In this document: piece after piece, positions 11,553-59,033 of the stretch | Position numbering within the stretch: the stretch's first letter is position 1 | Layout of the letters: each line of letters opens with the position of its first letter | IMG/VR virus record: IMGVR_UViG_3300020037_001229 | Reading direction: 5' to 3' (one strand) | From: an uncultured virus (IMG/VR IMGVR_UViG_3300020037_001229) | Lineage: Duplodnaviria > Heunggongvirae > Uroviricota > Caudoviricetes | Length of the DNA stretch: 64,000 nucleotides | Notes under the pieces: model-generated | The model's database searches: none | Told to the model about the DNA's origin: nothing | What the model saw: the letters and a program-made list of their open reading frames with translations, nothing else | Translations under genes and position numbers: made by a program

Positions 11553-11820
11553 TATCTAAAAATGCCTTTCTTTGAGGTCTATCTGTAGAATAACAAAAAA
11601 GATCGGGATTAGTAACCATTGGAATATAGATTACTTCCAAATTGTCATCATTAGGTCTTTTATATACTTCGTGTAAAACTCCGAATATCTTAACTTGTTT
11701 GATTAACTCAAAGTCTAACCCCATCGCTTGAGCACGAATTGTCTCTGGGGTTACACAATTGAAGACTGCGTTTGTTGTGTTTAATGTGACAACTAGCACT
11801 TTTAACAACGGTAAAAACAT
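11530..11820 (-). CDS. Hypothetical protein
   Basis: 96 aa ORF tightly packed between genes. Confidence 0.5.
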   Translation of the reverse strand: MFLPLLKVLVVTLNTTNAVFNCVTPETIRAQAMGLDFELIKQVKIFGVLHEVYKRPNDDNLEVIYIPMVTNPDLFCYSTDRPQRKAFLDNERFDSL

Positions 11821-14285
11821 TAACTACCGCAATAACCTCCTCCTGTTATGTCGCAGACATCGTTCCATTCTGCGTACTCTTCAAACTCCTCTCCAAGTTT
11901 TTCTACAGCTTCACTATATGTGACGGAAGTAAGGGGTTGTCCTCCACGCGCTCCATCCGGATAGCATGTAAACCCTCTGAGCCTCGGTGCATACCTAATA
12001 AGGACATCGGCAAATTCGTTAGTGTTAAATTTTTGTTCGTTCTTAGCAGGCAAGTTAATTGTACTAGAGATTGCCATGTCAACGTAATCTTGTACGTCTG
12101 CTTGGAATTTAATTCTTCTTTCGTAATCTGTTGCGAGATCAACGGCACTCTCCACTTTCTCTGGGGTTACACCCAGCCTTTCAATTAAGTCTTTGGCAAC
12201 ACTATCAACTGCGTATTGGTAGTGCCATTTAGTACCCTTTAGATATCTACGTTTATAAGCTACAGCGTATACAGGCTCAATACCTGTGGTAGTTCCTGCG
12301 ACCATTCCGATAGTTCCGGTGGGGGCAATCGACCTATTTGCGATAGGCCTGCTAATCCCTAGCGTATCCGCGTATTTTCTAGAAGTGTCATCACTAACAC
12401 CTTTGTAAACAGACAACCACTGGTGGAGTTCAGGAACAACTTCATACCGATACCCTCTCTTTAGCAACCATTCATGAAGTCCCATTAAACCAAGACCAAG
12501 ACGACGATTCTTTTCGCGAGTAAGACGAATTTTATCGTATGGAAGGTCAGCTTCTAAGGTACCACAAAGAAGAAAAGCAGTTGCTAATTCAACGAGAGTA
12601 CTAAACTCTTGAATAGATTCAATCCTACTTAGATTCAACGAACCCAGATTACAGACGTCTGAGTCGTCTTCGGAAGTAACTTCTGTACCATTTTGTTTTT
12701 GCCTTATTCATTTCTGAAAGGCCTCCGTATCTCTACGGAGTTCAGACTATATCACCACCCTCAAAAAGAGGGGCCAATCTTTCCAACTTATACATAAAAC
12801 TTGGTTGCATAAAAGGTTTTACTGTCTCGACGAACAGTTTTAAATCCTTTGTTTTAACTCGTAAATAGTAATATTTATTGTGACGATTAACATTTGTTCG
12901 TATGCCGGTACTCTTGTAAATTGCTTTACTCAAAGCCATATTGTCTTGGTAGCTAAAACCTTTAGTATGCAAACTTATTTCGCCGTGAGGATTTTTAAAA
13001 CGCGTGTCTAAATACGCCCCGCCATCCGCCATAAAAATAATAGCTAGTGCCTCTGCATCCATGAGTTTTAACATGTGTGGATCAATAACTTTAGTCCTGT
13101 CAATGTACAAACGCCGATGTAATTTAGTAAAAAATGGATGAACTTTTGTTGTTAATCTTAATAAAGGTTGTCTCTTAAATCCATCTTTATTGTAATCCGG
13201 TGGTTCAATAATACTTGTTGTCGTGACGTTTTCTAAAGTTTTTTGTACCCACTCAACATAATCAGAATTTTCTTTTCGCATATTTAGAATAAAGTTTGCG
13301 TTCTGATTCTTACCTTGTTTGTATAGACCACCGTCGAAAGTGGCCATAAAAGAGATCAATTTTACGAGTTGTTTTTTATCTGTATAAGTCATAGTCGTTA
13401 AACTCCCAAATACTTGGTTAGCACGGTATTGTCCTAAAAGGAGTTTCACCGTTTTCATATTGGTTGAATTCAATACTAATTACTTAGTAAGGGCGCACAC
13501 ATTTACGCGTTTCTTAGAGTCTCTCTTTCTTTATCGAAAAAGTTGAATGAGAAGCCAGGGTCACCCGTTGTTAAAGCTTGCTCAACATTAGTCAAAAATA
13601 CTTTGTCTGGCTTGTTGGTTTTATAGTAGTTTAATAACCACTCAGTATCATAGTTAACAGAAATGTTAGTCATATCTAACGGGGCTGGAAAGTCCCAATC
13701 AAGATTCTTAATATCCTGTATCGTCTTGCCAGTCCCAGCGACACCGTAGTTATGCCAGTTCTTCACTGTTAAAAACTGATCAATATCTCCGTGTTTCCAA
13801 TTTAGAGAGGCGTACAAAGCTGATCTTCTACTTCCTCCTTGCATAACACGTCTACCAATTTCATTGATCATTAACATTTTAGGAATTGGCCCGGAGGCTT
13901 TACCACCAGTCCTAGCAATTGTGGCTCCGGATGGACGATACACAGAATAGTCGGTCCCGATGCCACCGCCAGTCAAAAGACACGATTCGGCCTTCCACGA
14001 GAGGTTCGCCCAATCTTCTCTAGTATCCTCTTCCGCACGAAGAAGATAACAGTTATTAAAGAATTTAACTTTTCTGCCAGCGTAGTAAAGATACCTACCA
14101 CCAGGTAGAAATTTCATCTCTGCAATAGCGTTCGCAATTGCACTAACAGTATCGTTGGGTAAGTATTTACCACAAACTTGTTTAGCGAGTGTCCACGCTA
14201 AGTCTTCCCATGTTTCACATCCATCATGTCTGTATTTGTTTAAAAATGTATCGTGACTTAATTTGTTTCTAAATACTTTTTCCAT
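11820..14285 (-). CDS. nrdJ: Class II (B12-dependent) ribonucleotide reductase, spliced (exons 13505-14285 and 11820-12688)
   Basis: PGGR, NCY, NAC(T|GT)TE restored on splicing, CNLGS, IAPTGT, C-terminal Cys pair; no beta subunit recognised in window. Confidence 0.85.
12689..13504 (-). mobile_element. Group I intron in RNR with LAGLIDADG homing endonuclease
   Basis: Exon ends in U, intron ends in G; AACGACUA and GAUAUAGUCUG core elements; splicing restores the catalytic Cys codon. Confidence 0.9.
12742..13392 (-). CDS. Intron-encoded LAGLIDADG homing endonuclease
   Basis: LISFMATFDGG and ALAIIFMADGG motifs; GGGAG SD before ATG 13392. Confidence 0.8.
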   Translation of the reverse strand: MTYTDKKQLVKLISFMATFDGGLYKQGKNQNANFILNMRKENSDYVEWVQKTLENVTTTSIIEPPDYNKDGFKRQPLLRLTTKVHPFFTKLHRRLYIDRTKVIDPHMLKLMDAEALAIIFMADGGAYLDTRFKNPHGEISLHTKGFSYQDNMALSKAIYKSTGIRTNVNRHNKYYYLRVKTKDLKLFVETVKPFMQPSFMYKLERLAPLFEGGDIV

Positions 14286-20193: not shown

Positions 20194-20268
20194 TGGTTTG
20201 GGGACTTGGATTCGAACCAAGATCGCATGGAGTCAAAGGCCAGCATTCTACCATTAAACTATCCCCAA
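20194..20268 (-). tRNA. tRNA-Gln(UUG)
   Basis: Cloverleaf, GTTCGAATC T-loop, encoded CCA; anticodon loop CTTTGAC; irregular anticodon stem. Confidence 0.8.
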
Positions 20269-20985: not shown

Positions 20986-23100
20986 TTAGTGAGTTTCCAT
21001 CCAGTTATAACCTGTTCTCCAGGTGCCTGCTTGTGGGCACTTAACCCCTAAGTCTTTCCCTGCTTGAACAATTGCGTCTGCAAATACTTGGCCTGTATAT
21101 TCTGGTAGGCCTTCTGTGTCTTTTACCATGCATTGTATTTCATCGTGTACGAAATTAACAATTCTAAATGGAATCTTTTCCTTTCTCAACTTTTCTCTTG
21201 CTAACCACATTGCGTACTTCATGATGACTGCTTCACCATTCTGCAAATAACCTGCAAGCATAAGGTGATTAGAGTTACACATAACCAGTCTACCATCAAA
21301 GCCTATGAAGTAACCCCGTTGAACATCTTGAGGAATCATTTCCTCTTTGACATATTTCAGGCCGGGATAACCATCAAGGAAGTTTTGACGAGCAACTACT
21401 GCATCACCAACAGAACACTCTAGAACTTGTGCGGTCTTTGGGGCAGAAGCTCCAAGAACCCATGAGTAAATACAACATGTTTAATTAAGTTCGCTAAACT
21501 TAATCCGTAGGGCTATACGTTCCCGTATAGATCAGACTATATCTTCACCTTCAATAGAAGGGCCAACCGTTTCCACCTGCTTAGGTGTACTCTCTTTCGA
21601 GATAGTCGTTGCACGTTCCTCATAAGAGGCTTCGCTCAGTATTATCCTTTCTGGACTTCCACTGAATTAGATTGGTTTATAGACGCCTATTTAACTAAAC
21701 GTCTTTGCATCATTTCTAGTTTTACAAATAGTTTTTGAGTTATTCAACTTTTTTCTGTTTAGTGAGTGAACGTCAGTTTCGTCTTTAGAAGAACCAGAAA
21801 CAAGAGCTTGGGTAAACTCTTCGTCTTCCATGTAATGGGCAAGAACACGAAGCTGAATACCTTCGGCGTCACAGCCTACAAGTTTCCACCCTGGCTTTAC
21901 TGTCCAGAGGGACCTATAGTCGGCACCCCATCCGCCCTTTTCTCCCCATAAAACCTCTTTAGTTTCAGGATCGTTCTGGATACGAATGATATTGCCGGTG
22001 TTAGGGTTCTTGTGGGCGGCACGGTGTGTCCATGTACCAATAGGTTTAATTTCACCGTGTATGCACTGAGTCTTAGGATTGTAAGCAGCAAGCCATTCGT
22101 TTAGTGTTGTTAATCTTCTTGAGAGAAGAATATATCGAACGAGCTTATGTGCTGCTGGAGGAGCGGAGGGAGGAAGAGTATTCAAGTTCTCTTCTGAGAT
22201 AGTCCAACCAGTTTTCTTGTATGCTTCTAGTTTTTCGTAGTCTCTGTCGCGTTCGGCCTTAATGTGCCCCTTTGTCTTTTCTGTAGGCTTCCAGCCGAAC
22301 TCATTTAGTCTTTCGATGCACTGTTTTGTCGAAGATGGATTGAAAGGTTCAAACTCAAAGAGTGAAAAAGGACTATCTACTATATAACCGTTATCTTCTG
22401 GCAGTCCATCTAACCATCTAAAGTCTTTAGAATGTATCTTTCCAGTCTTTGTTGGGATAGGGTTAATCTCTCTAAGCAAAACTGACTTAGGAGGAAAGGC
22501 TTCTTGTATTTCGAGGTTAAGAAGTCTTCTTTCTTCTTCGATTTGTTTATAGAGTTCTTCTGCCTTTTTGACATCGAAGGGAAACCCATTGTAATGCATT
22601 TCTGTGGAGATGATGGCGGCTCTATGTTCATTACGCATAGAGTCTTTCCACCTAGGGTCTAAGATGGTACTCTTGAGGAAGTTGAAGACCTTTTCCGTTA
22701 CTTCAACGTCACGAATGCAGTAGTCAATCATTTCTTGGGAGAGACGGGAGAAGTCGAAGAAGTCACCTTTAGGAAGGTTAAGCCGTTCTCCCCAATCGGC
22801 AAGCCCATGACGGTTATAATCCCATGAATTTACCAAACGTGAAACTACTAAAGTATCAATAACTCTTTCAGGATCAATTTGAGTCTTACACAGTCTGTTT
22901 AGGACAGGGGTGTCGAACCAAATGGCATTGTGTCCTACTAAAATGTATTTAGAAAGGTACTCCCTTAGTTCTTCTTGGTTCTGTTCGTCTGGGCGTTTCC
23001 AGACTTTAACTTCGCCCGTTTGAATATCTTTAGTTACACACACCCAGACTTTTGTGGGCTTTAAGGAATCTGCTTCTACGTCAAATATAAGAAATCTTAT
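20986..23100 (-). CDS. polA: Family A DNA polymerase, spliced (exons 21698-23100 and 20986-21472); probable ATA start
   Basis: ExoI FDVEAD, GHNAIWFD, motif A DAEGIQLR, motif B RNDAKTFIYSW restored on splicing, motif C VHDE. Confidence 0.9.
21473..21697 (-). mobile_element. ORF-less group I intron (225 nt) in DNA polymerase motif B
   Basis: P1 AGACGUU/GGCGUCU, GCAACGACUA, AAGAUAUAGUCUG, terminal G; splicing restores the frame. Confidence 0.9.
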
Positions 23101-37778: not shown

Positions 37779-37863
37779 TGGTATGGACGGAGGGACTCGA
37801 ACCCCCATGCCTTTCGGCGTCTGGGTTTAAACCAGAGGTGTCTACCAATTCCACCACGCCCAC
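37779..37863 (-). tRNA. tRNA-Leu(UAA)
   Basis: Cloverleaf with long variable arm, loop TTTAAAC, CCA. Confidence 0.88.
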
Positions 37864-37974
37864 TTAGTCTCTAGTGGTAAAACCACGATAGGTATACTAT
37901 AAAGCCTATGGCGGTCCACACGCATATCGGGGGTAATAACAACTTGAGCATGTCATTGCTTTCCTTGTTGCTCC

Positions 37975-38472
37975 CTAGGCGGCCTTGGCCTGCTCGTTGA
38001 TCTTGTTGAGGTTACCTCGCCCGTCGAAATAGGCCTTGGCCTCATCAAGCCACTGTGCCAGACGCTGCTTGACTATCTGTTCGGAGTCTTCCGAGAAACG
38101 AAGGGCGATTCTCTCCACAGCGGCCCAATCGGGCATGTTGAAAGCCCCGTGTTCGATCCTGGAGTATTCAAGTCCACGAAGGAAGCCATAGGCGATGAAC
38201 GAAGAACGGGATTCCTTCCGGAGGATACCCTTCCGGTGGTCTTGGAGATTCCAGAGCTTCTCGTAGGCTTCATCGGCCCTACGGAGCCTTTCCATAGGTT
38301 CGATCTCGGCATTAAAGTTCTGTGCTTCTGGGCGAACCCTACCCTTGCCGTGTCTGAAGGACTGTTTCCCGATAAGCCAACGACCATAGCGGAGAACACG
38401 AGTCTCTTCGAGCTTGATGTGCCTCGCTTCCGAGGAGAGAGTCTTCAGTTTTACTTTGAGTGCAGTCAACAT
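37975..38472 (-). CDS. Conserved phage hypothetical protein
   Basis: LKVKLK.L..EAR.I..EE...L..HR...R.ESR....AYGFLRG..Y..IE pattern; GC-rich. Confidence 0.6.
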   Translation of the reverse strand: MLTALKVKLKTLSSEARHIKLEETRVLRYGRWLIGKQSFRHGKGRVRPEAQNFNAEIEPMERLRRADEAYEKLWNLQDHRKGILRKESRSSFIAYGFLRGLEYSRIEHGAFNMPDWAAVERIALRFSEDSEQIVKQRLAQWLDEAKAYFDGRGNLNKINEQAKAA

Positions 38473-38493
38473 GTCAGTTTCCTCTTTGTGAAT

Positions 38494-38569
38494 TGGAGAG
38501 CCCGGTGGGATTCGAACCCACGACCTGTAGATTAAAAGTCTATTGCTCTACCTACTGAGCTACGGGCTC
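38494..38569 (-). tRNA. tRNA-Lys(UUU)
   Basis: Cloverleaf, loop CTTTTAA, CCA. Confidence 0.9.
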
Positions 38570-38673
38570 ATACCTGGGGTGGTGACTCCGGTTGCTAAGG
38601 GAGGACAGAGTCACCGATTGTTCCTCCGAGAATCTACATGATCTCCTCCTGTAGATTTACTAAAAGCACTAAG

Positions 38674-38750
38674 TGGAGCCCCTGACAGGATTTGAACCTG
38701 CAACCTTCACCTTACAAGGGTGTTGCTCTAGCCATTTGAGCTACAAGGGC
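38674..38750 (-). tRNA. tRNA-Thr(UGU)
   Basis: Cloverleaf, loop CTTGTAA, CCA. Confidence 0.9.
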
Positions 38751-38760
38751 AAACTGTTGT

Positions 38761-39021
38761 TTACTTTTTGAGAGCGAACTTGGCTACCTTTCGGTAGGTG
38801 TCCACAAGATTACGATAGGAAGACTCATCATAAGTCTTTTCTCTAGGGTACCCATCATTTGTACACGCGCCAGATTCAGTAGGAAACAAAGAAACCCATA
38901 GCAGAGCATTTTCTAATTTCTTTATTCTTTCTCTGAGTGTCTTGTTTTCCTCACGAATGGCGGCTAGTTCACCCTCCGAAGCCTCGGCACGCGCCCTGCG
39001 GATCATGTGTTGAATACCCAC
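38761..39021 (-). CDS. Hypothetical coiled-coil protein; start uncertain
   Basis: ORF between tRNA-Thr and upstream gene. Confidence 0.45.
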   Translation of the reverse strand: MGIQHMIRRARAEASEGELAAIREENKTLRERIKKLENALLWVSLFPTESGACTNDGYPREKTYDESSYRNLVDTYRKVAKFALKK

Positions 39022-39335
39022 TACCAGCTCACCCGGACGATATAGGCACCAGGCTCGATCCACCCCTGCTGAACTGCGTAGGAGAGCGGAAGGTGTAGGC
39101 TCGAGCGCTCGAGGTCAATGAGCCCGGTGTTGGCGAACTTCTGGCGCTCTTCCTCATCCCACTTGTGCTCGGCGTTGGCAGGGTCAGGAAGCTCGACATC
39201 GACCGAATAATCGGTGTCGTTGGGCGAACCAATGATCTCGACCTCCTTGCCGAGCTTCTCGGTTAGGAACGCCTCAAGGTCGGCGTAATCAACATAGTGG
39301 GTCGTCTTGGTGGTCATTATGAGTGTTGAGTCCAT
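39021..39335 (-). CDS. Hypothetical protein
   Basis: AGGAG SD before ATG 39335; the longer ORF call overlaps tRNA-Arg. Confidence 0.55.
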   Translation of the reverse strand: MDSTLIMTTKTTHYVDYADLEAFLTEKLGKEVEIIGSPNDTDYSVDVELPDPANAEHKWDEEERQKFANTGLIDLERSSLHLPLSYAVQQGWIEPGAYIVRVSW

Positions 39336-39356
39336 GTCTATTCTCCTTTTGTTTAA

Positions 39357-39433
39357 TGGTGATCCTACCTGGACTCGAACCAGGAACCTAGAGATTAGAA
39401 GTCTCTCGCTCTGTCCAGTTGAGCTATAGGACC
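39357..39433 (-). tRNA. tRNA-Arg(UCU)
   Basis: Cloverleaf, loop CTTCTAA, CCA. Confidence 0.92.
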
Positions 39434-51759: not shown

Positions 51760-54700
51760 ATGGCTACACAGAAAAAAGCTGTAAGAAAAATTACTAGAGG
51801 CCCTGACGGTAAGATTAAAACTATTTACGTTGACGCACAAACAAAACAAGAACTGACTTCTCTTATTGGTTATACTGTTAATTCACAGAATGAGTTAGCC
51901 ACTGAGGATTTTCCCCATGGATTAAACTCTATGTTAGACATGCCACATGGTCTGAATGCTATCGAAGGGTTTCCATTAACACCATTCCTGCCCGGCATTT
52001 CTGATAGAGATACTCAAGGCTCTTCGAGTGGTTCACTCTCTGACATGGAGTGGCTAAACCCTAGAAACGGGAGAGACCCTGATTCATCTGCCTTAACTTC
52101 TGAAGACAGGACACCTGCTAATAATTTTGGTTACGTCAATAAGCCTGGTTTTCTTAGTTTAGCCTCTGCTCTTCCGGGAATTCCAGGTATTATTGGTAAA
52201 GGTATCAATGCCGCTGTCAATGCCAATAACGTAGCTGCCATTAACGCGGCAAGAGAAACTCTCGGACTCCCTGAGCAATCCACAAAGGAAGCTCTAAGAG
52301 GTATCGTCCAAGATAATAAAGGCGTCGTTGCTGAAGCCACGATTGGTAATCAACAAGTAGCCATTGGACTCGAAGCTACTACTCCCTCGGGTCGTACTAC
52401 AATGACCCCACAAGAGGCTCTTGCGAGAGCAGAAGCCAATGACGTAGAAATCCAAGAAGCTACTCCTGAAGCAAAAGAAGCGGCTGAAGCTAAATTCGCC
52501 GAAGAATACGGAAAGCAAGCACAAGGTTTCTTAGGTAATCTAAAAGACATCGTAAAGGATGTTACTGAAGCAAAAAGTCCACTAGCAAATATCAAAAGTC
52601 CCTTTGCCAACGTAAAGAGTCCTTTAACAAAAAGTGAATCTAAATCTAAAGGAAAGTCTAAGGAAGCAAAAGCAGAAAGCAAATCAACTGGTATAGCTTC
52701 TCCCGAGAGTGCCAAGAACGTTTCTATCACACCTGGTTTAGGTCTAGGTAATCTTACGAACAGAACTGCTAAGACGGACCTAGCTGGCAAAAGCCGTGGT
52801 GTTGCCCCTGACGCTACTCTGATGGATGTTATCCAACAAGCGGTAGAACAAACACTAGGGCCTGGTTATCAAGCCGTTGTTTCTTCTGGAACTTACTCCC
52901 CCGAACAACAAGCAGCTATCAATGAAGCCCGTGCCCAAGCTTACCAAGCAGCTATTGTAGCTGGTAAAACACAGGCACAGGCGAATAAGGCTGCTGACGC
53001 TGCTGGTAAGGCTGCCGGTCAAGTTGGTACTACAAGGCACACGACTGGCAAAGCCGCTGACTTCTATATTGTAGACCCCCAGGGTAACAGAGTTCAAAGC
53101 ACAGAGGCCCTAAAGTCTATCGCTGCTTCGCTGGCTAGCCTAGGTATTACTGGTATTGGTCTTGGTAATCCTGGTGGCTATATGGGTGGTACTTCTATCC
53201 ATGCTGACGTTGTCGACCCTTCAAAGGCGACTGGTTGGGGTGGTTTAGGCCAACAGTTCAAAGACGCTATCAATGACTCTATTGGCCTTCCTAATAAATT
53301 TAGTCCGACGGGTATTCCGACACCAACTGCTTCTCCTAGAAACGATCCTGTTCAAGACGTTGCCACCGAGGGTACTCAAAAGTCGACGACACCTGAGCCT
53401 GTTGGATACAACACTGGTTTTGTTGGTCAAGCCTACGGTTCTGGTAATGACGCTCAACAAGCTTTTGCTCCGATGGGTTTTGCACCCACTCAGAATAGAA
53501 GTGATGTTCTTGATCCTTTGATGAGGGACCCTAGAACTGTTGAAGAAATTACGGCTCTAGCGAAGGCTATCGCAGGTGAACTCGGTTCTAATACTCTTGC
53601 CGGTATTAACTCTGGTGATGAAGCCGCTAAATCTGTAGCACGACAAGAAATTGCTGCCATCCTAGGAACTATAGAAAATAGAGCAGCTTCTGCGAGACAC
53701 GGAGGAAACCTAGCTAGTGTCTTAACTGGCAGTCAATACAATTCACTGATGTCCTCTAACTTAGCAACAACAGAAGCTAACTTCCAAGAGTTTGGTGATT
53801 TCATTACGGAAGCCATTCAAGATTACTACGATGGAACTAATCCTTCTCCTGCACCAAATGCTACACACTATTGGAATCCTTCTATCGTTAGTCCTTCTTG
53901 GTCTGACTACTCCAAGGATGGTACGACAGACGTAGGGGAACATACATTTTCTGATATTGCGATTCCGGGTACAAACGTAAGTGAATACTCTAAGGGTTTG
54001 CCAAATGAAGTAAATGTATCTGAAGTTGGTAGACCGTCTTTTACGACAGAAGCTGTTGCTTCTGGTATTGCAGGGGCAATGGCCTCTGGTAAAGGAACCA
54101 CTTCTGGTTCTAGTCTTGGTCTGTCAGGTTCAGCCAGTGGCCTAGCGGGTTTAACTGGTGCTGGAAAAGGTACAATTTCGGTCAATCCGAATACAGGTAT
54201 TATTTCCTTTGATGTTGTTTCACCAGAGGAATACGCGGCAGCCGTCGCTGCTTCACAACCAGCTTTTACTGGTAATGTTCCGAGTTTCTCTTACGCAAGT
54301 CCTTCGGAAGCTTTCGCTAACTACGGTGTTAATACAACCTCTGTTGGGCCAGGTTCTGGTGTACAAATGGATGGCCTTGGTGCTTTCGGAAGTGCTCCGG
54401 GCTCTGGTTATGGCGGGCAAGCCATGGCAGGTCTACAGGGAATGACTGGTATTTCTAGTTCATTTGATAATCCCACGGGTATTGCCGGTACTGGTATTGG
54501 TTATGGTTTTGACGCTGGTTCACTAGGTGGTACTGCTTCTGGTTTTGGTTCTGGTTTCGGCGCTGTCGGAACTTCTGGTTATGGTAGTTTCAGTGGAGGT
54601 ACCGACGCAGGGACAGACTTCGGTGGTCCAGGTACCTTCGGTGGTTCTTTCGGTGGTGGATACGGTTCGCAATCAACCGCTGGGGCTACTTCAGAGTCTA

Positions 54701-55392
54701 TAGGTGCTGGTGGTTATTCTGCTCCTAGTGCTGAGTCTTCCTTTGGTGGATTTAATGCAGGTTCCCTTGGTGGTTCCGCCTCAGGATTTGGATCAGGTTT
54801 TGGTGCCGTAGGCTCCTCTAACACAGGCTCTCCTGGTTATAGTGGTTTCTCACAATCAGGTCTAGGTAACTACTCTGGTGGTACGAGTAGCTCTTCTAGT
54901 GGCAGCACTTCCAGTTCAGGCTCAGGGAGTGGATCAAGCTCTGCCGGAAAAGGCGGTGGTGGAGGTTACAGCGGTTATGGTGGTTTGGATTCTCCGTCCG
55001 AACACGGACCAGGCCCCGGAAGCGGCAGTGGAGACGCTGGGGGAGATACAATCCTCTGTACATACTTCCACGGAAAAGGAAGACTATCAGATGAGCTTTA
55101 TTTTGCTGATAGTTCTTACGGTGCAATATACATTTCTGAAGATACAATGAATGGTTATCAACTCTGGGCAGAGCCTATTGTTGAGTACTTAAAGAAAAAG
55201 AAGCACCCTATCTTAGAAGAATTCTTATTTTTCTTTGTGAAAGGATGGGCCACAGAAATGGCTTATCGTATGGGTGTTGAAAAGAAATCTAACTTTATCG
55301 GGCGACAGATATGCAATTTTGGTGAAGCGATCTGTAGTTTAATTGGTAAGGCAACTCGTTTTATAAAGCGACCCCTGAAGGAGAATACATGA
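51760..55392 (+). CDS. Large virion-associated protein with putative peptidoglycan hydrolase domains
   Basis: RHTTGKAADF...IHAD (M15-like), AIAGE..IENR..QY..ATHYWNP..PSW..GEHTF (Hydrolase_2-like), Gly/Ser-rich tract. Confidence 0.65.
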   Translation: MATQKKAVRKITRGPDGKIKTIYVDAQTKQELTSLIGYTVNSQNELATEDFPHGLNSMLDMPHGLNAIEGFPLTPFLPGISDRDTQGSSSGSLSDMEWLNPRNGRDPDSSALTSEDRTPANNFGYVNKPGFLSLASALPGIPGIIGKGINAAVNANNVAAINAARETLGLPEQSTKEALRGIVQDNKGVVAEATIGNQQVAIGLEATTPSGRTTMTPQEALARAEANDVEIQEATPEAKEAAEAKFAEEYGKQAQGFLGNLKDIVKDVTEAKSPLANIKSPFANVKSPLTKSESKSKGKSKEAKAESKSTGIASPESAKNVSITPGLGLGNLTNRTAKTDLAGKSRGVAPDATLMDVIQQAVEQTLGPGYQAVVSSGTYSPEQQAAINEARAQAYQAAIVAGKTQAQANKAADAAGKAAGQVGTTRHTTGKAADFYIVDPQGNRVQSTEALKSIAASLASLGITGIGLGNPGGYMGGTSIHADVVDPSKATGWGGLGQQFKDAINDSIGLPNKFSPTGIPTPTASPRNDPVQDVATEGTQKSTTPEPVGYNTGFVGQAYGSGNDAQQAFAPMGFAPTQNRSDVLDPLMRDPRTVEEITALAKAIAGELGSNTLAGINSGDEAAKSVARQEIAAILGTIENRAASARHGGNLASVLTGSQYNSLMSSNLATTEANFQEFGDFITEAIQDYYDGTNPSPAPNATHYWNPSIVSPSWSDYSKDGTTDVGEHTFSDIAIPGTNVSEYSKGLPNEVNVSEVGRPSFTTEAVASGIAGAMASGKGTTSGSSLGLSGSASGLAGLTGAGKGTISVNPNTGIISFDVVSPEEYAAAVAASQPAFTGNVPSFSYASPSEAFANYGVNTTSVGPGSGVQMDGLGAFGSAPGSGYGGQAMAGLQGMTGISSSFDNPTGIAGTGIGYGFDAGSLGGTASGFGSGFGAVGTSGYGSFSGGTDAGTDFGGPGTFGGSFGGGYGSQSTAGATSESIGAGGYSAPSAESSFGGFNAGSLGGSASGFGSGFGAVGSSNTGSPGYSGFSQSGLGNYSGGTSSSSSGSTSSSGSGSGSSSAGKGGGGGYSGYGGLDSPSEHGPGPGSGSGDAGGDTILCTYFHGKGRLSDELYFADSSYGAIYISEDTMNGYQLWAEPIVEYLKKKKHPILEEFLFFFVKGWATEMAYRMGVEKKSNFIGRQICNFGEAICSLIGKATRFIKRPLKENT

Positions 55393-56192: not shown

Positions 56193-56382
56193 TACAAACC
56201 CTCGAAAGAGACTACTTTGTGTTAACAACTAAAGACAACAAAAACATAGACAGACTACTCAATTAAGTTGGCCTCTTAAGGACTGATCCTCTGAAAGACA
56301 CCCAACAATAAATTGACCTCTCTTGTGAATGTGTGTTTACCTTAAACCTAAACAAATTTAATTTATTCATAGGAGAATTACT

Positions 56383-58162
56383 ATGGCATTTCAAAAAGCA
56401 TCTGGTTACCAAAATTTGCCCAATGGAGTATTTTCTCCGACGCTTTACTCTAAGAAGGTTCAGAAAGCCTTCCGTAAGGCCTCGGTTGTAGAGGGTATTA
56501 CTAACTCGGACTTTTTTGGGGAAATCTCTAACTTCGGTGATTCGGTTCGCATTATCAAGGAGCCGGAAATCACTGTCCAGAACTACGCACGTGGTACTCA
56601 GATTACTCCGCAGGATATGACGGATGAGGACTTCTCGCTCGTTGTAGATAAGGCTAATTACTTCGCCTTTAAGGTCGATGACATTGAAGAGAAGCACTCG
56701 CACGTTAACTGGATGGACCTCGCCACCGACCGTGCAGGCTACAAGATGAAGGACACGTATGACTCGGAAGTTCTGGGTTATATGTCGGGCTACGTTAAGA
56801 ATAGCTCGGGCGTCTGGATTGCGAATACTACGACTTCGGGTTCGGTAGCCAATACGTCGGCTGGTACTGACGAATGGCTTACTGCTCAGAAGCTCGCTCG
56901 TGACGACTTTGTCTCGGGTGGTTCCGCCTCGGACTCTATCGCTGTTGGTGTCGCTGGTACTTACGATGTGACTCCTCTTGCGATCCTTAACCGAATGAAT
57001 CGTATTATGGACCTCTATAACGTCCCGAAGGATGGTCGTTGGGTTGTCGTTGATCCGGTCTTCGTTGAGATTCTGATGGACGAAAACTCGAAGTTTATGA
57101 ACCATGACTATCAGGGTTCGGAAGACTTCACTAACGGCAGAATTTCGGCTGGTAAGATTCGTGGATTTAATGTCCACATGTCTAATAACCTTCCGTATCT
57201 CGGTACGGGTCCTGGTACGGCTGACTCCAACGGTTCGTCCGCGAACTACGGTGTGATCCTTGCGGGTCATATGTCCGCCGCCGCCACTGCTACTCAGATC
57301 ACAAAGACGGAATCGTACCGTGATCCTGACTCGTTCGCTGATATTGTTCGTGGTATGCAGCTTTACGGCCGTAAAATACTTAGGAGTGAAAGCTTAGTTC
57401 GAGCTATCTACAATATTAACTCCTAATGCGCTTCATACATTAATTGTATGTCGAAACCCTCTTAATTCAGAGAAACTCTAAGGAAGACAGCGCGCTTCTA
57501 TGACAACCCTGAGCGAAGCCTCTTATGAGGAACGTGCAACGACTAACCCTACCAAGGTGTACATCCAAGTGGATGGAAATAGAGGGAAACTTATACACTA
57601 AGTTTTTGATATAGTCTAATCTATATGGAAACATATAGCAGAAAGGTTAAGTTTAGAATGAAATTAAAACTACCAGAAAACCATCCGCATAAAGACGGAA
57701 GGGAATGCACAACTTGTAATACTTTTAAGAGCGCCTCAGAATTTACTTTATCGAGAGATAAAAGGAGTTTTGGTGGTATAGCGATGCGATCAAAGTGTAA
57801 AACGTGTGACGAACTAAGAAAGTACAAAGGGTTCGTTAAAAGAACATACAATTTAACATTTGAAGGCTACGAACAGCTTTTAGAAAAACAGAATTACTGT
57901 TGTGCGATCTGTGAAAGTAAAATTTCTAGTAAAAGAACTTCTAGACTCTTTGTTGACCATTGTCATGAGACATTAGTAGTCAGAGGTTTGCTCTGCTCTT
58001 CTTGTAATCATGGTCTCGGTCAGTTTAAAGATAGTCCAAAACTTTTACAGAGAGCAATACAATATTTAACCTCGGGTAAGACTTAACGACTCTTACTGAA
58101 TGAAAATGAAAATCTTGCGTCCCGAGACGCTCGTTCGCGCCATTTACAATATCAACGTCTAA
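56383..58162 (+). CDS. Major capsid protein (spliced exons 56383-57372 + 58109-58162; unspliced form ends at 57426)
   Basis: P22-coat-like motifs GEI...GDSV.I, F.VDDIE..HS, FADIVRG..LYG.KILR. Confidence 0.88.
57373..58108 (+). mobile_element. Group I intron in the capsid gene with EndoVII-type HNH endonuclease and internal copy of exon 2
   Basis: P3 CCCUCU/AGAGGG, GCAACGACUA, GAUAUAGUCUA, GAAA-capped P9, exon U and terminal G, in-frame exon 2. Confidence 0.85.
57625..58086 (+). CDS. Intron-encoded endonuclease VII-like HNH homing endonuclease (start may be 57658)
   Basis: CTTC/CKTC; Q..CCAIC, VDHCH...VRGLLCSSCNHGLG. Confidence 0.85.
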   Translation: METYSRKVKFRMKLKLPENHPHKDGRECTTCNTFKSASEFTLSRDKRSFGGIAMRSKCKTCDELRKYKGFVKRTYNLTFEGYEQLLEKQNYCCAICESKISSKRTSRLFVDHCHETLVVRGLLCSSCNHGLGQFKDSPKLLQRAIQYLTSGKT

Positions 58163-58179
58163 TTTAAGGAGTATTACTT

Positions 58180-58674
58180 ATGGCTACTGTTGATATGTCT
58201 GCGGGTGTGACCACGTTGCACCCCACTCGCTCGGGTAATACGTCTTTACCGTATCTCGTCGAGGTTGACCTTGATATCGCCGCTGCGGCTACTGAAAAGG
58301 GTTCTGCCCTTGCTGCTGACGACGTTATTCAGGTTATTGATGTCCCTGCTGGTACTCTCGTACTTGCAGCGGGTTTTGAAGTGACCACGGAGACGACTGA
58401 TACTCAGACTGACGTTACTGTCGACATGGGTATCACTGATATCGACGCCGATGTTTTCGTTGATGGTTTCGACCTCGACGGCGCTTCGGCTGGTGCTTAC
58501 CCACAGCAACCGGCGGCTTACCAGCCTGTCGTTATTGGCGCTTCTGCCGATACTATCGATATCCTGATCAAGACTGCTACTGCTGCTCCGACGGCAGGTG
58601 AGCTTAGAGTTTGGGCTGTCCTTATGGACATTTCGGACCGTAAGGCTCCTGGCATTGTTGCTCTTGGTTCTTAA
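58180..58674 (+). CDS. Putative capsid decoration/minor capsid protein
   Basis: Follows MCP, AAGGAG SD, capsid-like codon usage, terminator downstream. Confidence 0.6.
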   Translation: MATVDMSAGVTTLHPTRSGNTSLPYLVEVDLDIAAAATEKGSALAADDVIQVIDVPAGTLVLAAGFEVTTETTDTQTDVTVDMGITDIDADVFVDGFDLDGASAGAYPQQPAAYQPVVIGASADTIDILIKTATAAPTAGELRVWAVLMDISDRKAPGIVALGS

Positions 58675-58685
58675 TACTTAACAAC

Positions 58686-58719
58686 TAGGGGGATGCTAAA
58701 TGGTGTCCCCCTATTTTTT
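58686..58719 (+). terminator. Rho-independent terminator
   Basis: TAGGGGGA...TCCCCCTA followed by T run. Confidence 0.8.
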
Positions 58720-58733
58720 ATCAGGAGATTTTA

Positions 58734-59033
58734 ATGTCTGAGTATGCACCAATTAAATCTAACACTTGTACATTTTCTACCGTAGGAGATTCCGATTCTT
58801 CGGTGACACTTTTAGCATCCAACTCTAGAAGAAAAGGTGCCTCTATTGTTAATACGTCTACTGCCATTTTGTACCTTAGGATGGATGGTGGTACGGCCAC
58901 TGCGACGACAGGTTACAATGTCCCACTTATTCAAGGTGGCTATTTTGAAGTACCATTCGGTTATACGGGGGCTATTACAGGTATTTGGGCTTCAGACGCT
59001 GGTGGAGCAGCTAACGTAGCTGAATACACGTAA
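58734..59033 (+). CDS. Virion structural protein
   Basis: 99 aa; RRKGA.I.N...LY...YTGAITGIW. Confidence 0.55.
   Translation: MSEYAPIKSNTCTFSTVGDSDSSVTLLASNSRRKGASIVNTSTAILYLRMDGGTATATTGYNVPLIQGGYFEVPFGYTGAITGIWASDAGGAANVAEYT

Follow-up and report, generated by a model that had tools for sequence, protein, structure and literature searches.

Group I introns in the protein genes of bacteria and phages meet a particular difficulty: ribosomes trail the polymerase and disturb the folding of the ribozyme, and unspliced RNA gives a truncated protein, an early stop codon being the usual remedy. The major capsid gene of an uncultured caudoviricete (IMG/VR record IMGVR_UViG_3300020037_001229; the whole 64,000-nucleotide stretch analyzed is called the window) raises the question of why an intron in such a gene should begin with a recoded copy of the exon that lies downstream of it. 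The answer that appears probable is that the intron is mobile and that the copy is a dual-coded surrogate exon: a capsid protein with Ser at residue 335 would be made from unspliced RNA, and the native capsid protein, with Pro at this residue, from spliced RNA.

The capsid open reading frame (ORF; 56383..57426) reads in frame and without a gap from exon 1 into the first copy of the C-terminus, designated copy A. It is followed by a group I ribozyme core, an endonuclease gene, and the second copy, designated copy B. Joining 57372 to 58109 preserves the frame, with G58108 standing before AAA ATC. Since the splice points bracket copy A, the ribozyme and the endonuclease gene, unspliced RNA must give a full-length capsid protein. 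An earlier note on this DNA, made from the sequence alone, had proposed a fail-safe intron that makes the capsid independent of splicing; the full-length reading follows from the layout, and fail-safe expression is what we infer from it. The features, all on the plus strand, are as follows.

56383..57372, plus strand: exon 1 of the major capsid gene, 330 codons, the last being TAC GGC CGT (from the ORF list).
57367..57372, plus strand: 5' strand of the P1 helix, GGCCGU, with the 5' splice site after U57372; its register with 57428-57433 is wobble, wobble, mismatch, pair, pair, wobble.
57372/57373 and 58108/58109, plus strand: the 5' splice point (between CGT and AAA) and the 3' splice point.
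57373..57426, plus strand: copy A, the in-intron, in-frame surrogate of exon 2 (KILRSESLVRAIYNINS and TAA), which fills the P1 loop.
57380..57387, plus strand: 5' arm of the stem that closes the insert, UUAGGAGU, pairing with 57419-57426 (from the sequence and the minimum free energy (MFE) fold).
57412..57638, plus strand: group I ribozyme core from the P1 region to P9 (Rfam Intron_gpI, RF00028).
57419..57426, plus strand: 3' arm of the insert-closing stem, ACUCCUAA, including the stop codon of copy A.
57428..57433, plus strand: internal guide sequence GCGCUU (3' strand of P1), 1 nucleotide past the copy A stop.
57434..57450, plus strand: P2 hairpin, CAUACA UUAAU UGUAUG.
57658..58086, plus strand: homing endonuclease gene; homologues align from the ATG at 57658, and the longest ORF starts at 57625 within P9.
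58076..58096, plus strand: P9.1-like hairpin, GUAAGA / UCUUAC, overlapping the final endonuclease codons.
58097..58108, plus strand: 3' tail of the intron, UGAAUGAAAAUG, with the terminal G58108.
58109..58162, plus strand: copy B, the native exon 2 (KILRPETLVRAIYNINV and TAA).
58180..58674, plus strand: next late gene, 164 amino acids, with the Shine-Dalgarno (SD) sequence AAGGAG at 58166-58171; context outside the element.

Copies A and B have 35 of 54 nucleotides and 14 of 17 residues in common (65% and 82% identity), and three residues differ. Nine of the 14 common residues are encoded by different codons and five by the same codon. ATA, AGG, AGT, and TTA are used in copy A and are absent from all 330 codons of exon 1. 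The GC content is 33% in copy A, 39% in the ribozyme core, 36% in the endonuclease gene, and 49% in both copy B and exon 1. Copy B thus resembles exon 1 in codon usage and GC content, and it retains the Pro seen in intron-less relatives. After its stop codon come AAGGAG and, at 58180, the ATG of a gene that is also the next one after the capsid gene in intron-less relatives. The positions and counts for the two copies in the earlier note were exact on recount, and its statements that copy B has capsid-like codons, that copy A uses ATA, AGG, and TTA, and that copy B adjoins the SD of the next gene agree with these values.

The same design recurs in other phages. IMG/VR was searched with the endonuclease, and L090 and L091/L092 were found, whose capsid proteins are about 60% identical to that of the window and whose parts come in the same order; further lineages came from metagenomes scanned with six aligned endonucleases. 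The succession of exon 1 ending in CGT, copy A and its stop, GCGCUU with the ribozyme, the endonuclease gene, the hairpin with a terminal G, and copy B was found in 10 distinct lineages: the window, L143, L145, L146 (=L090), L147, L151 (=L092), L152, L154, L155, and L159, the contig of the last stopping short of copy B. In every one of them copy A stands directly after CGT as an intact open frame of 16-17 codons that copies the C-terminus type of the phage itself, and its stop lies 1-14 nucleotides ahead of the GCGCUU guide. Copy B is intact in all nine A-bearing lineages that reach it. The fifth residue (335) is Pro in copy B and Ser or Ala in copy A in 10 of 10 lineages, and Arg in copy A is always encoded by AGR. 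The alignment with relatives that the earlier note had suggested thus places the pair of copies in nine other lineages, and intron-less and A-less relatives were seen as well.

An assembly chimera, which the earlier note had kept in view, is refuted by these lineages together with independent copies of the locus. The IMG/VR contig behind L004 matches the window at all 6618 bases surrounding the locus, G001 matches it at 2292 of 2292 bases, and L088 has both copies and a 100% identical HNH protein. Two Logan contigs, independent of each other and from runs of two studies, cover the locus between them: that of run X5 spans 56793-57636 (exon 1, copy A, and the core; about 2% divergent in the capsid gene) and that of run X1 reaches from the core at 57516 to the end of copy B at 58162, with the endonuclease gene between them. 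The probability of a chimera or of a chance duplication is therefore negligible.

Copy A is constrained as a protein and evolves mostly by synonymous change. For the seven copies A of 16 codons, the summed pairwise ratio of non-synonymous to synonymous differences per site (pN/pS) is 0.154, with pairs that are not independent and pS near saturation. Between L143 and L146, copy A has eight synonymous and no non-synonymous differences, and between L146 and L155 nine and none. The summed pN/pS of the B copies is 0.212, a low value that may come from their history as part of an ordinary capsid gene; a function of copy B is suggested indirectly, by the apparent selection for splicing (the retained ribozyme and the folding of copy A). 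Phages with a single capsid C-terminus of the form KILRS... or KILRA... exist (L012, L096, L161, L173, and L175), and Ser or Ala is thus viable at position 335. The C-terminus of the capsid protein probably matters. YGRKI.R is invariant among 25 capsid proteins, and in an AlphaFold model, used for the C-terminal segment only since its mean predicted local distance difference test score (pLDDT) of 56.9 is poor overall, the last 17 residues reach pLDDT 73-83 with a strand at 339-345.

The same codons are shaped as RNA. The MFE of the insert is -13.2 kcal/mol compared with a mean of -6.8 kcal/mol for synonymous recodings, only one of 300 of which was as low. In MFE folds from exon position -12 to P2, the insert closes on itself, and P1 is present in eight of nine A-bearing lineages, L151 being left out. 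The mean probability of the three core P1 pairs was calculated for the real copy A, for 300 synonymous recodings, and for copy B in the place of copy A. It ranges from 0.24 (the window) to 1.00 with the real copy A. With uniform recodings the mean is 0.01-0.09 in seven lineages, 0.30 in L152, and 0.40 in L145, and the observed value was reached by 0-12 of 300 recodings in nine of 10 lineages (90 of 300 in L145). When the codon usage of the elements themselves was applied, it was reached by at most 12 of 300 in eight of 10 lineages (53 in L145 and 33 in L146). Copy B in the place of copy A gave 0.00-0.01 in eight of nine lineages and 0.95 in L145. According to these folding models, the recoding is no random divergence: it is largely what allows an insertion of 52-65 nucleotides to occupy the P1 loop without destroying P1, and this folding is the strongest sign that splicing mattered while copy A was present.

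The conserved feature before the guide is the closing stem, which is built from different sequences in different lineages. The string UAACUCCUAAU before the guide was considered as a conserved motif and rejected, as it is absent in L143, L152, and L155. The change of Pro to Ser or Ala and the use of AGR and AGY codons supply purines for the closing stem and would also alter an endonuclease site over CGN CCN, and either may be the reason for them. Codons 4-6 of copy A in the window (AGGAGUGA, 57382-57389) can also pair with the guide at -7.5 kcal/mol. A hairpin of UUUAC (57361-57365) and GUAAA (57371-57375) spans the 5' splice site and rivals P1 in the MFE fold of the window.

The ribozyme is recognized by its covariance model with 79.8 bits compared with a gathering score of 50, and the whole model (1-253) is covered, which bears out the group I intron of the earlier note. 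In the window, GGCCGU and GCGCUU pair as G.U, G.U, C x C, C-G, G-C, and U.G, the last (U57372.G57428) being the U.G pair at the 5' splice site. Among nine aligned capsid-intron sequences, compensatory changes are seen in 29 of 55 predicted core pairs, and the P2 helix is retained despite changes on both sides. The P9.1-like hairpin was aligned in 12 sequences, including Twort orf142-I3, JDF86, and the PolA intron of the window: all six pairs have changed on both sides, 72 of 72 cells are paired, the covariation score was reached by none of 500 shuffles, and slid registers pair at 25-65%. A terminal G precedes copy B in all 11 lineages whose contigs reach copy B. The ribozyme is under selection, its structures having been kept with copy A present through a long divergence, as the endonuclease genes of the elements are only 60-77% identical in DNA (L151/L092 apart). 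At the 3' splice site of the window (58097-58114), there is a tandem hexamer AUGAAA AUGAAA, and G58102 is a possible alternative in-frame acceptor, which would add Lys-Met.

In two lineages, L150 and L153, the same intron, endonuclease included, occupies the CGT/AAA site but lacks copy A. Their P1 loops are 8-9 nucleotides long, the stop follows after 6-7 meaningless codons, and P1 is perfect with six pairs (GGGCGU/GCGCUU in L150 and GGUCGU/GCGAUU in L153). The guide is invariant as GCGCUU in the 10 A-bearing lineages. Its change from C to A in L153 stands opposite the U of the exon and is compensatory, restoring the pair at -4. Perfect P1 helices in L150 and L153 at the same site therefore fix the 5' splice site at 57372/57373. 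For alternative 5' splice sites near the stop of copy A, no acceptable P1 was seen by inspection. With two A-less cases only, there is a hint in the sequences that selection on P1 is relaxed where copy A is present.

The footprints of mobility are seen in comparisons between lineages. L151 and L092, loci of different contigs, are 100% identical over the last 240 nucleotides of exon 1 and on through copy A, the ribozyme, and the endonuclease gene. Their copies B differ at nine nucleotides, their next genes are 66% identical, and the boundary of exchange lies sharply at the 3' splice site. Copy A of L143 and that of L155 have two synonymous differences, yet copy B differs (ALVT versus AITT). Therefore copy A moves with the element, and copy B belongs to the invaded genome. 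That copy A belongs to the element is also indicated by its AT-rich composition, which is like that of the intron. The insertion site shows presence/absence polymorphism, with intron-less relatives such as L005, whose capsid protein is 79% identical. The synonymous divergence of the two copies had been taken in the earlier note as a sign of coding selection on both. This part fails as an argument for selection on both in place, because copy A travels with the intron and copy B is the exon of the recipient (L151/L092); the coding capacity of copy A and the ribozyme are both kept by selection in 10 lineages. In L143 (271-321 versus 1005-1055), the last 21 nucleotides of copies A and B are identical, including the TGA stop, and the first 30 differ at 11 positions, which may represent gene conversion between the copies. 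Copy A may have arisen by an unequal crossover at the stop codon, through its capture from a phage with a free-standing endonuclease, or by gene conversion from copy B.

The ORF 57625..58086 inside the intron, reported as an HNH gene before, matches Pfam Endonuclease_7 (PF02945; E = 3.1e-25). D111, H112, H114, R120, and N128 are invariant in an alignment of six homologues, and we infer, in a mapping of our own, that they correspond to the 'DHHRN' name of PMC6083498. In IMG/VR the homologues show 52-65% identity, and those in the classified metagenome contigs 49-71%. A tblastn search of 50,697 phage records with the endonuclease gave none above 44% identity among the matches listed, and among these records and the other searches no named phage with the spare-exon design in a capsid intron was found.

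Relatives of this endonuclease are also found free-standing directly past the capsid stop, with neither ribozyme nor copy B, in 22 of 37 metagenome contigs classified and in the same layout in L093-L098. In these free-standing cases (L093-L098 and the 22 contigs among L156-L178), the capsid protein has RP, KP, RS, or RA at the position where copies A and B differ. A tree of the endonucleases, rooted at its midpoint only and with long branches for L153 and L159, places 11 of 12 intron-borne copies in one clade (93/82) among 17 free-standing rows, with L159 falling outside any resolved position. Both A-less forms are nested in the intron-borne clade, L150 with L145 (100/100) and L153 with the L151 group (98/96). 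From this nesting, copy A is probably ancestral and was lost twice. Codons 4-5 of copy A always differ from CGN CCN, which is the only pointer to the cleavage site. It is plausible from this constant change, with Pro replaced by Ser or Ala, that recoding protects the element from self-cleavage.

The core of the capsid intron is of the Twort orf142 type. It is about 70% identical to the introns in the tail tube gene orf142 of Staphylococcus phage Twort, especially the third, and to that of vB_SauM_JDF86. These introns align with the capsid intron in P2, P7-P9, the hairpin with the loop AGUAACGAA, and the 3' tail ending in ...UUG or ...AUG. They likewise have U.G at the 5' splice site and lie near the 3' end of a highly expressed late structural gene; in the Twort record the coding sequence of the tail tube protein is joined from four pieces. 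Unlike the capsid intron, they have a P1 loop of 10-11 nucleotides with a stop within about three codons (LNF* in JDF86), and they carry neither an endonuclease gene nor a copy of the downstream exon. The tail tube gene of JDF86 was considered as a second case of a spare exon and rejected, being a normal intron with a P1 loop of 10 nucleotides and a short real exon. Its splicing would give ...TA and SDKAS*, as in the intron-less SaGU1.

The window has two further intron sites. An intron without an ORF at 21474-21697 (minus strand; Rfam 85.1 bits) lies between the ORFs 21691..23043 and 20986..21339 and splits the R..AK..F.Y motif of PolA, a family A DNA polymerase. Its core is 75% identical to that of the capsid intron over 150 nucleotides, and thus the two introns are paralogues in one genome. 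Its P1 is a clean helix of seven pairs (AGACGUU/AGGCGUC), and the stop lies two codons past the 5' splice site; the early stops that the earlier note ascribed to the other two introns hold for this one. The third candidate, at 12639-13502 (minus strand), has an Intron_gpI match at 12723-12952 with 29.6 bits, below threshold. It splits a gene for the large subunit of ribonucleotide reductase (pieces 13503..14285 and 11820..12638) and contains a LAGLIDADG_2 ORF at 12742..13473 (E = 2.1e-25).

A C-terminal substitute carried by an endonuclease element is known from fungal mitochondria, and of the known systems these come closest to the capsid intron. Mobile open reading frames (mORFs) with a substitute C-terminus are present in atp6 of Allomyces macrogynus and in atp6, atp9, cox2, and nad3 of Glomus sp. 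For the two copies of Glomus atp6, the available passages of PMC3630166 give 63.5% nucleotide and 91% amino acid identity. Partial C-terminal duplications of cob and atp6 beside endonuclease ORFs are described in those of PMC6279837. As in the window, such a hybrid consists, in these descriptions, of an endonuclease gene and an in-phase replacement C-terminus with the native C-terminus downstream, the copies being distant in nucleotides and close in protein. Unlike the window, the hybrids described there are organellar, carry LAGLIDADG or GIY-YIG endonucleases, have no bracketing splice sites, and do not rejoin the native copy. The window has the in-phase C-terminal copy, the endonuclease ORF, the displaced native end, and a copy A of foreign composition. 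Its insert is bracketed by the guide and 5' site on one side and by the hairpin and terminal G on the other, so that the native copy can be rejoined. The element thus seems from its sequence to work like a mORF hybrid without simply being one, since the ribozyme looks working and the substitute is also shaped as RNA. In the full-text literature searched, most subscription journals aside, no case was found in which this device lies between the splice sites of a self-splicing intron, and no group I intron carrying a copy of its own downstream exon.

Among phage endonucleases, F-CphI of cyanophage S-PM2 likewise has the Endo VII motif, and is placed in the 'DHHRN' family in the available part of PMC6083498. 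Some free-standing homing endonucleases target an intron insertion site (collaborative homing), and a route by which such a gene comes to lie within the intron is described in the corresponding passages of PMC3984707 and PMC6083498. The free-standing relatives past the capsid stop, together with the intron-borne clade, fit this route, whereas the cases described in those passages have no exon copy inside the intron. The available text of PMC3984707 treats the coupling of translation and splicing as an issue for introns in protein-coding genes, and describes for the td, nrdB, and sunY introns of T4 a translation that enters the intron from the exon and ends before the catalytic core, as it does in copy A. 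These T4 introns have an in-frame stop near the 5' splice site, and the ribosome acts as a folding helper. Unlike the window, with its 17-codon exon copy, they contain few and meaningless intron codons, and their unspliced product is truncated.

The events at the capsid gene would then be as follows. Ribosomes on unspliced RNA would read exon 1 and copy A and release a 347-residue capsid protein with Ser-335 at a stop 1 nucleotide ahead of the guide. Copy A would fold back so that CGU of the exon (57370-57372) meets GCG (57428-57430) to form P1. With no ribosomes on this stretch, the insert hairpin and P1 would form, GTP would attack after U57372, and U57372 would be ligated to A58109, giving a 347-residue capsid protein with the native Pro-335 end; virions could then contain both proteins. 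The element would spread through gene conversion driven by its endonuclease, with copy A carried along and copy B remaining that of the invaded phage. The benefit would be that the most translated late gene gives no truncated capsid subunits, which are plausibly harmful, from its unspliced RNA.

Several observations speak against splicing as a part of this scheme, or lessen what the comparisons can carry. The 10 A-bearing lineages are related and not independent. P1 of the window is weak, only -2.2 kcal/mol as an isolated duplex, with the C x C mismatch that the earlier note had predicted together with the position of copy A in the P1 loop; nine of the 10 A-bearing lineages are mismatched at -4. 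The MFE fold of the window is without P1, the predicted probability of 0.24 being low. In nine valid rows, codons 4-6 of copy A could instead pair with the guide as a possible competitor helix, at -5.5 to -11 kcal/mol, and no convincing P10 pairing between the start of copy B and the bases 5' of the guide was seen by eye. The folding calculations are thermodynamic, use a context chosen by the author (-12 to +32 about the insert), and ignore ribosomes and tertiary structure, and L145 and L146 give weak results under at least one of the two null models. The intactness of copy B may reflect only recent invasion, as in the fungal mitochondrial hybrids of the available passages of PMC3630166. Of 24 sequencing runs listed, contigs of X15, X16, X5, and X1 were placed on 56300-58800, and no spliced joint was present in them, although contigs cannot show its absence. 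Two metatranscriptome runs of one study give no cover between about 57300 and 57980, and an RNA-library contig of X16 (58042-58282) runs unspliced through the 3' splice site. As DNA is possible in RNA libraries, the contigs weigh neither for nor against splicing.

Such observations would suit a C-terminal replacement and nothing more, in which copy A is the sole C-terminus used, copy B is a displaced remnant, the ribozyme is carried along or otherwise used, and splicing is negligible in vivo. The layout is that of the mORF hybrids, and the native part is unexpressed in Glomus atp6 and cox2 in the available passages of PMC3630166; the weak and mismatched P1, the missing joint in the four runs, the free-standing relatives past the capsid stop, and a copy B explicable as the recent native exon of the recipient all agree with it. 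It is nevertheless unlikely, because the core, the 3' hairpin, and the terminal G are kept with compensatory changes between elements whose endonuclease genes have diverged to 60-77% identity, because the codons of copy A are tuned for a P1 that would be purposeless without splicing, and because copy B is intact wherever an A-bearing contig reaches it. The converse, an ordinary mobile intron whose efficient splicing supplies all functional capsid protein, would make copy A a leftover of unequal recombination that serves as a structured P1 extension, with an irrelevant unspliced product. The closing stem and the P1-friendly folding of copy A are expected from it, and the A-less L150 and L153 indicate that copy A is dispensable for the intron. 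A mere RNA spacer, however, needs no frame of 16-17 codons that copies the exon peptide in all 10 lineages, no low pN/pS with several pairs at zero against eight or nine synonymous differences, and no stop held within 14 nucleotides of the guide, and this reading is thus very unlikely. Slightly more improbable is a regulated switch, in which the ratio of Ser-335 to Pro-335 is set on purpose, for example by ribosome traffic at P1, and the isoforms have different roles in the shell. The constant difference at residue 335, the ability of codons 4-6 to pair with either the 3' end of the insert or the guide, and a stop that adjoins the guide, which a terminating ribosome would cover, are in its favor, but no sign of distinct isoform roles was seen, phages with Ser only and with Pro only exist, and L150 and L153 give one form only.

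The dual-coded surrogate exon, used with and without splicing, therefore remains the probable explanation. A more tentative extension of it, possible but not what would be bet on, is that the surrogate is an adaptation for a self-splicing intron in the most heavily translated gene of the phage, that a race between ribosome and ribozyme at the dual-coded hairpin sets the share of the isoforms and virions are mosaic, and that an intron which loses the surrogate, as those of L150 and L153 have, must return to a perfect P1. If true, this would be a general answer to the rarity of group I introns in highly translated bacterial genes, with 54 nucleotides selected simultaneously as codons and as a ribozyme helix. 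A replacement C-terminus inside the P1 loop, shaped to keep splicing possible, combines the strategies of introns and of mitochondrial endonucleases, some of which stay harmless by bringing a C-terminus with them. If both routes are used, the element would be a selfish one that makes its own removal optional, a natural case of dense dual coding of peptide and RNA helix, and a tractable system to measure the competition between translation and splicing. For annotation, gene callers will give the Ser form as the capsid protein and miss the intron and the native end.

The phage is a podophage related to HMO-2011 and phiM6, and the intron lies 17 codons ahead of the capsid stop. Exon 1 has about 68-69% nucleotide identity to the major capsid genes annotated in Rhizobium phage RHph_N3_19 and Sinorhizobium phage phiM6, and annotated relatives end in ...YGRKIL(K/R)PQGLVRA.YN...*, with the next gene 15-26 nucleotides on. 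A relative of the capsid protein is encoded in 353 of 355 candidate IMG/VR stretches. Upstream of the capsid module, 51760-55392 encodes a protein of 1210 residues that is probably ejected or lies inside the virion. A cell-wall hydrolase domain (PF07486) spans its residues 633-730, and its C-terminal half is long and rich in Gly and Ser. Five tRNA genes are present on the minus strand at 20197-20268 and within 37782-39433 (Rfam tRNA, 49.8-76.1 bits).

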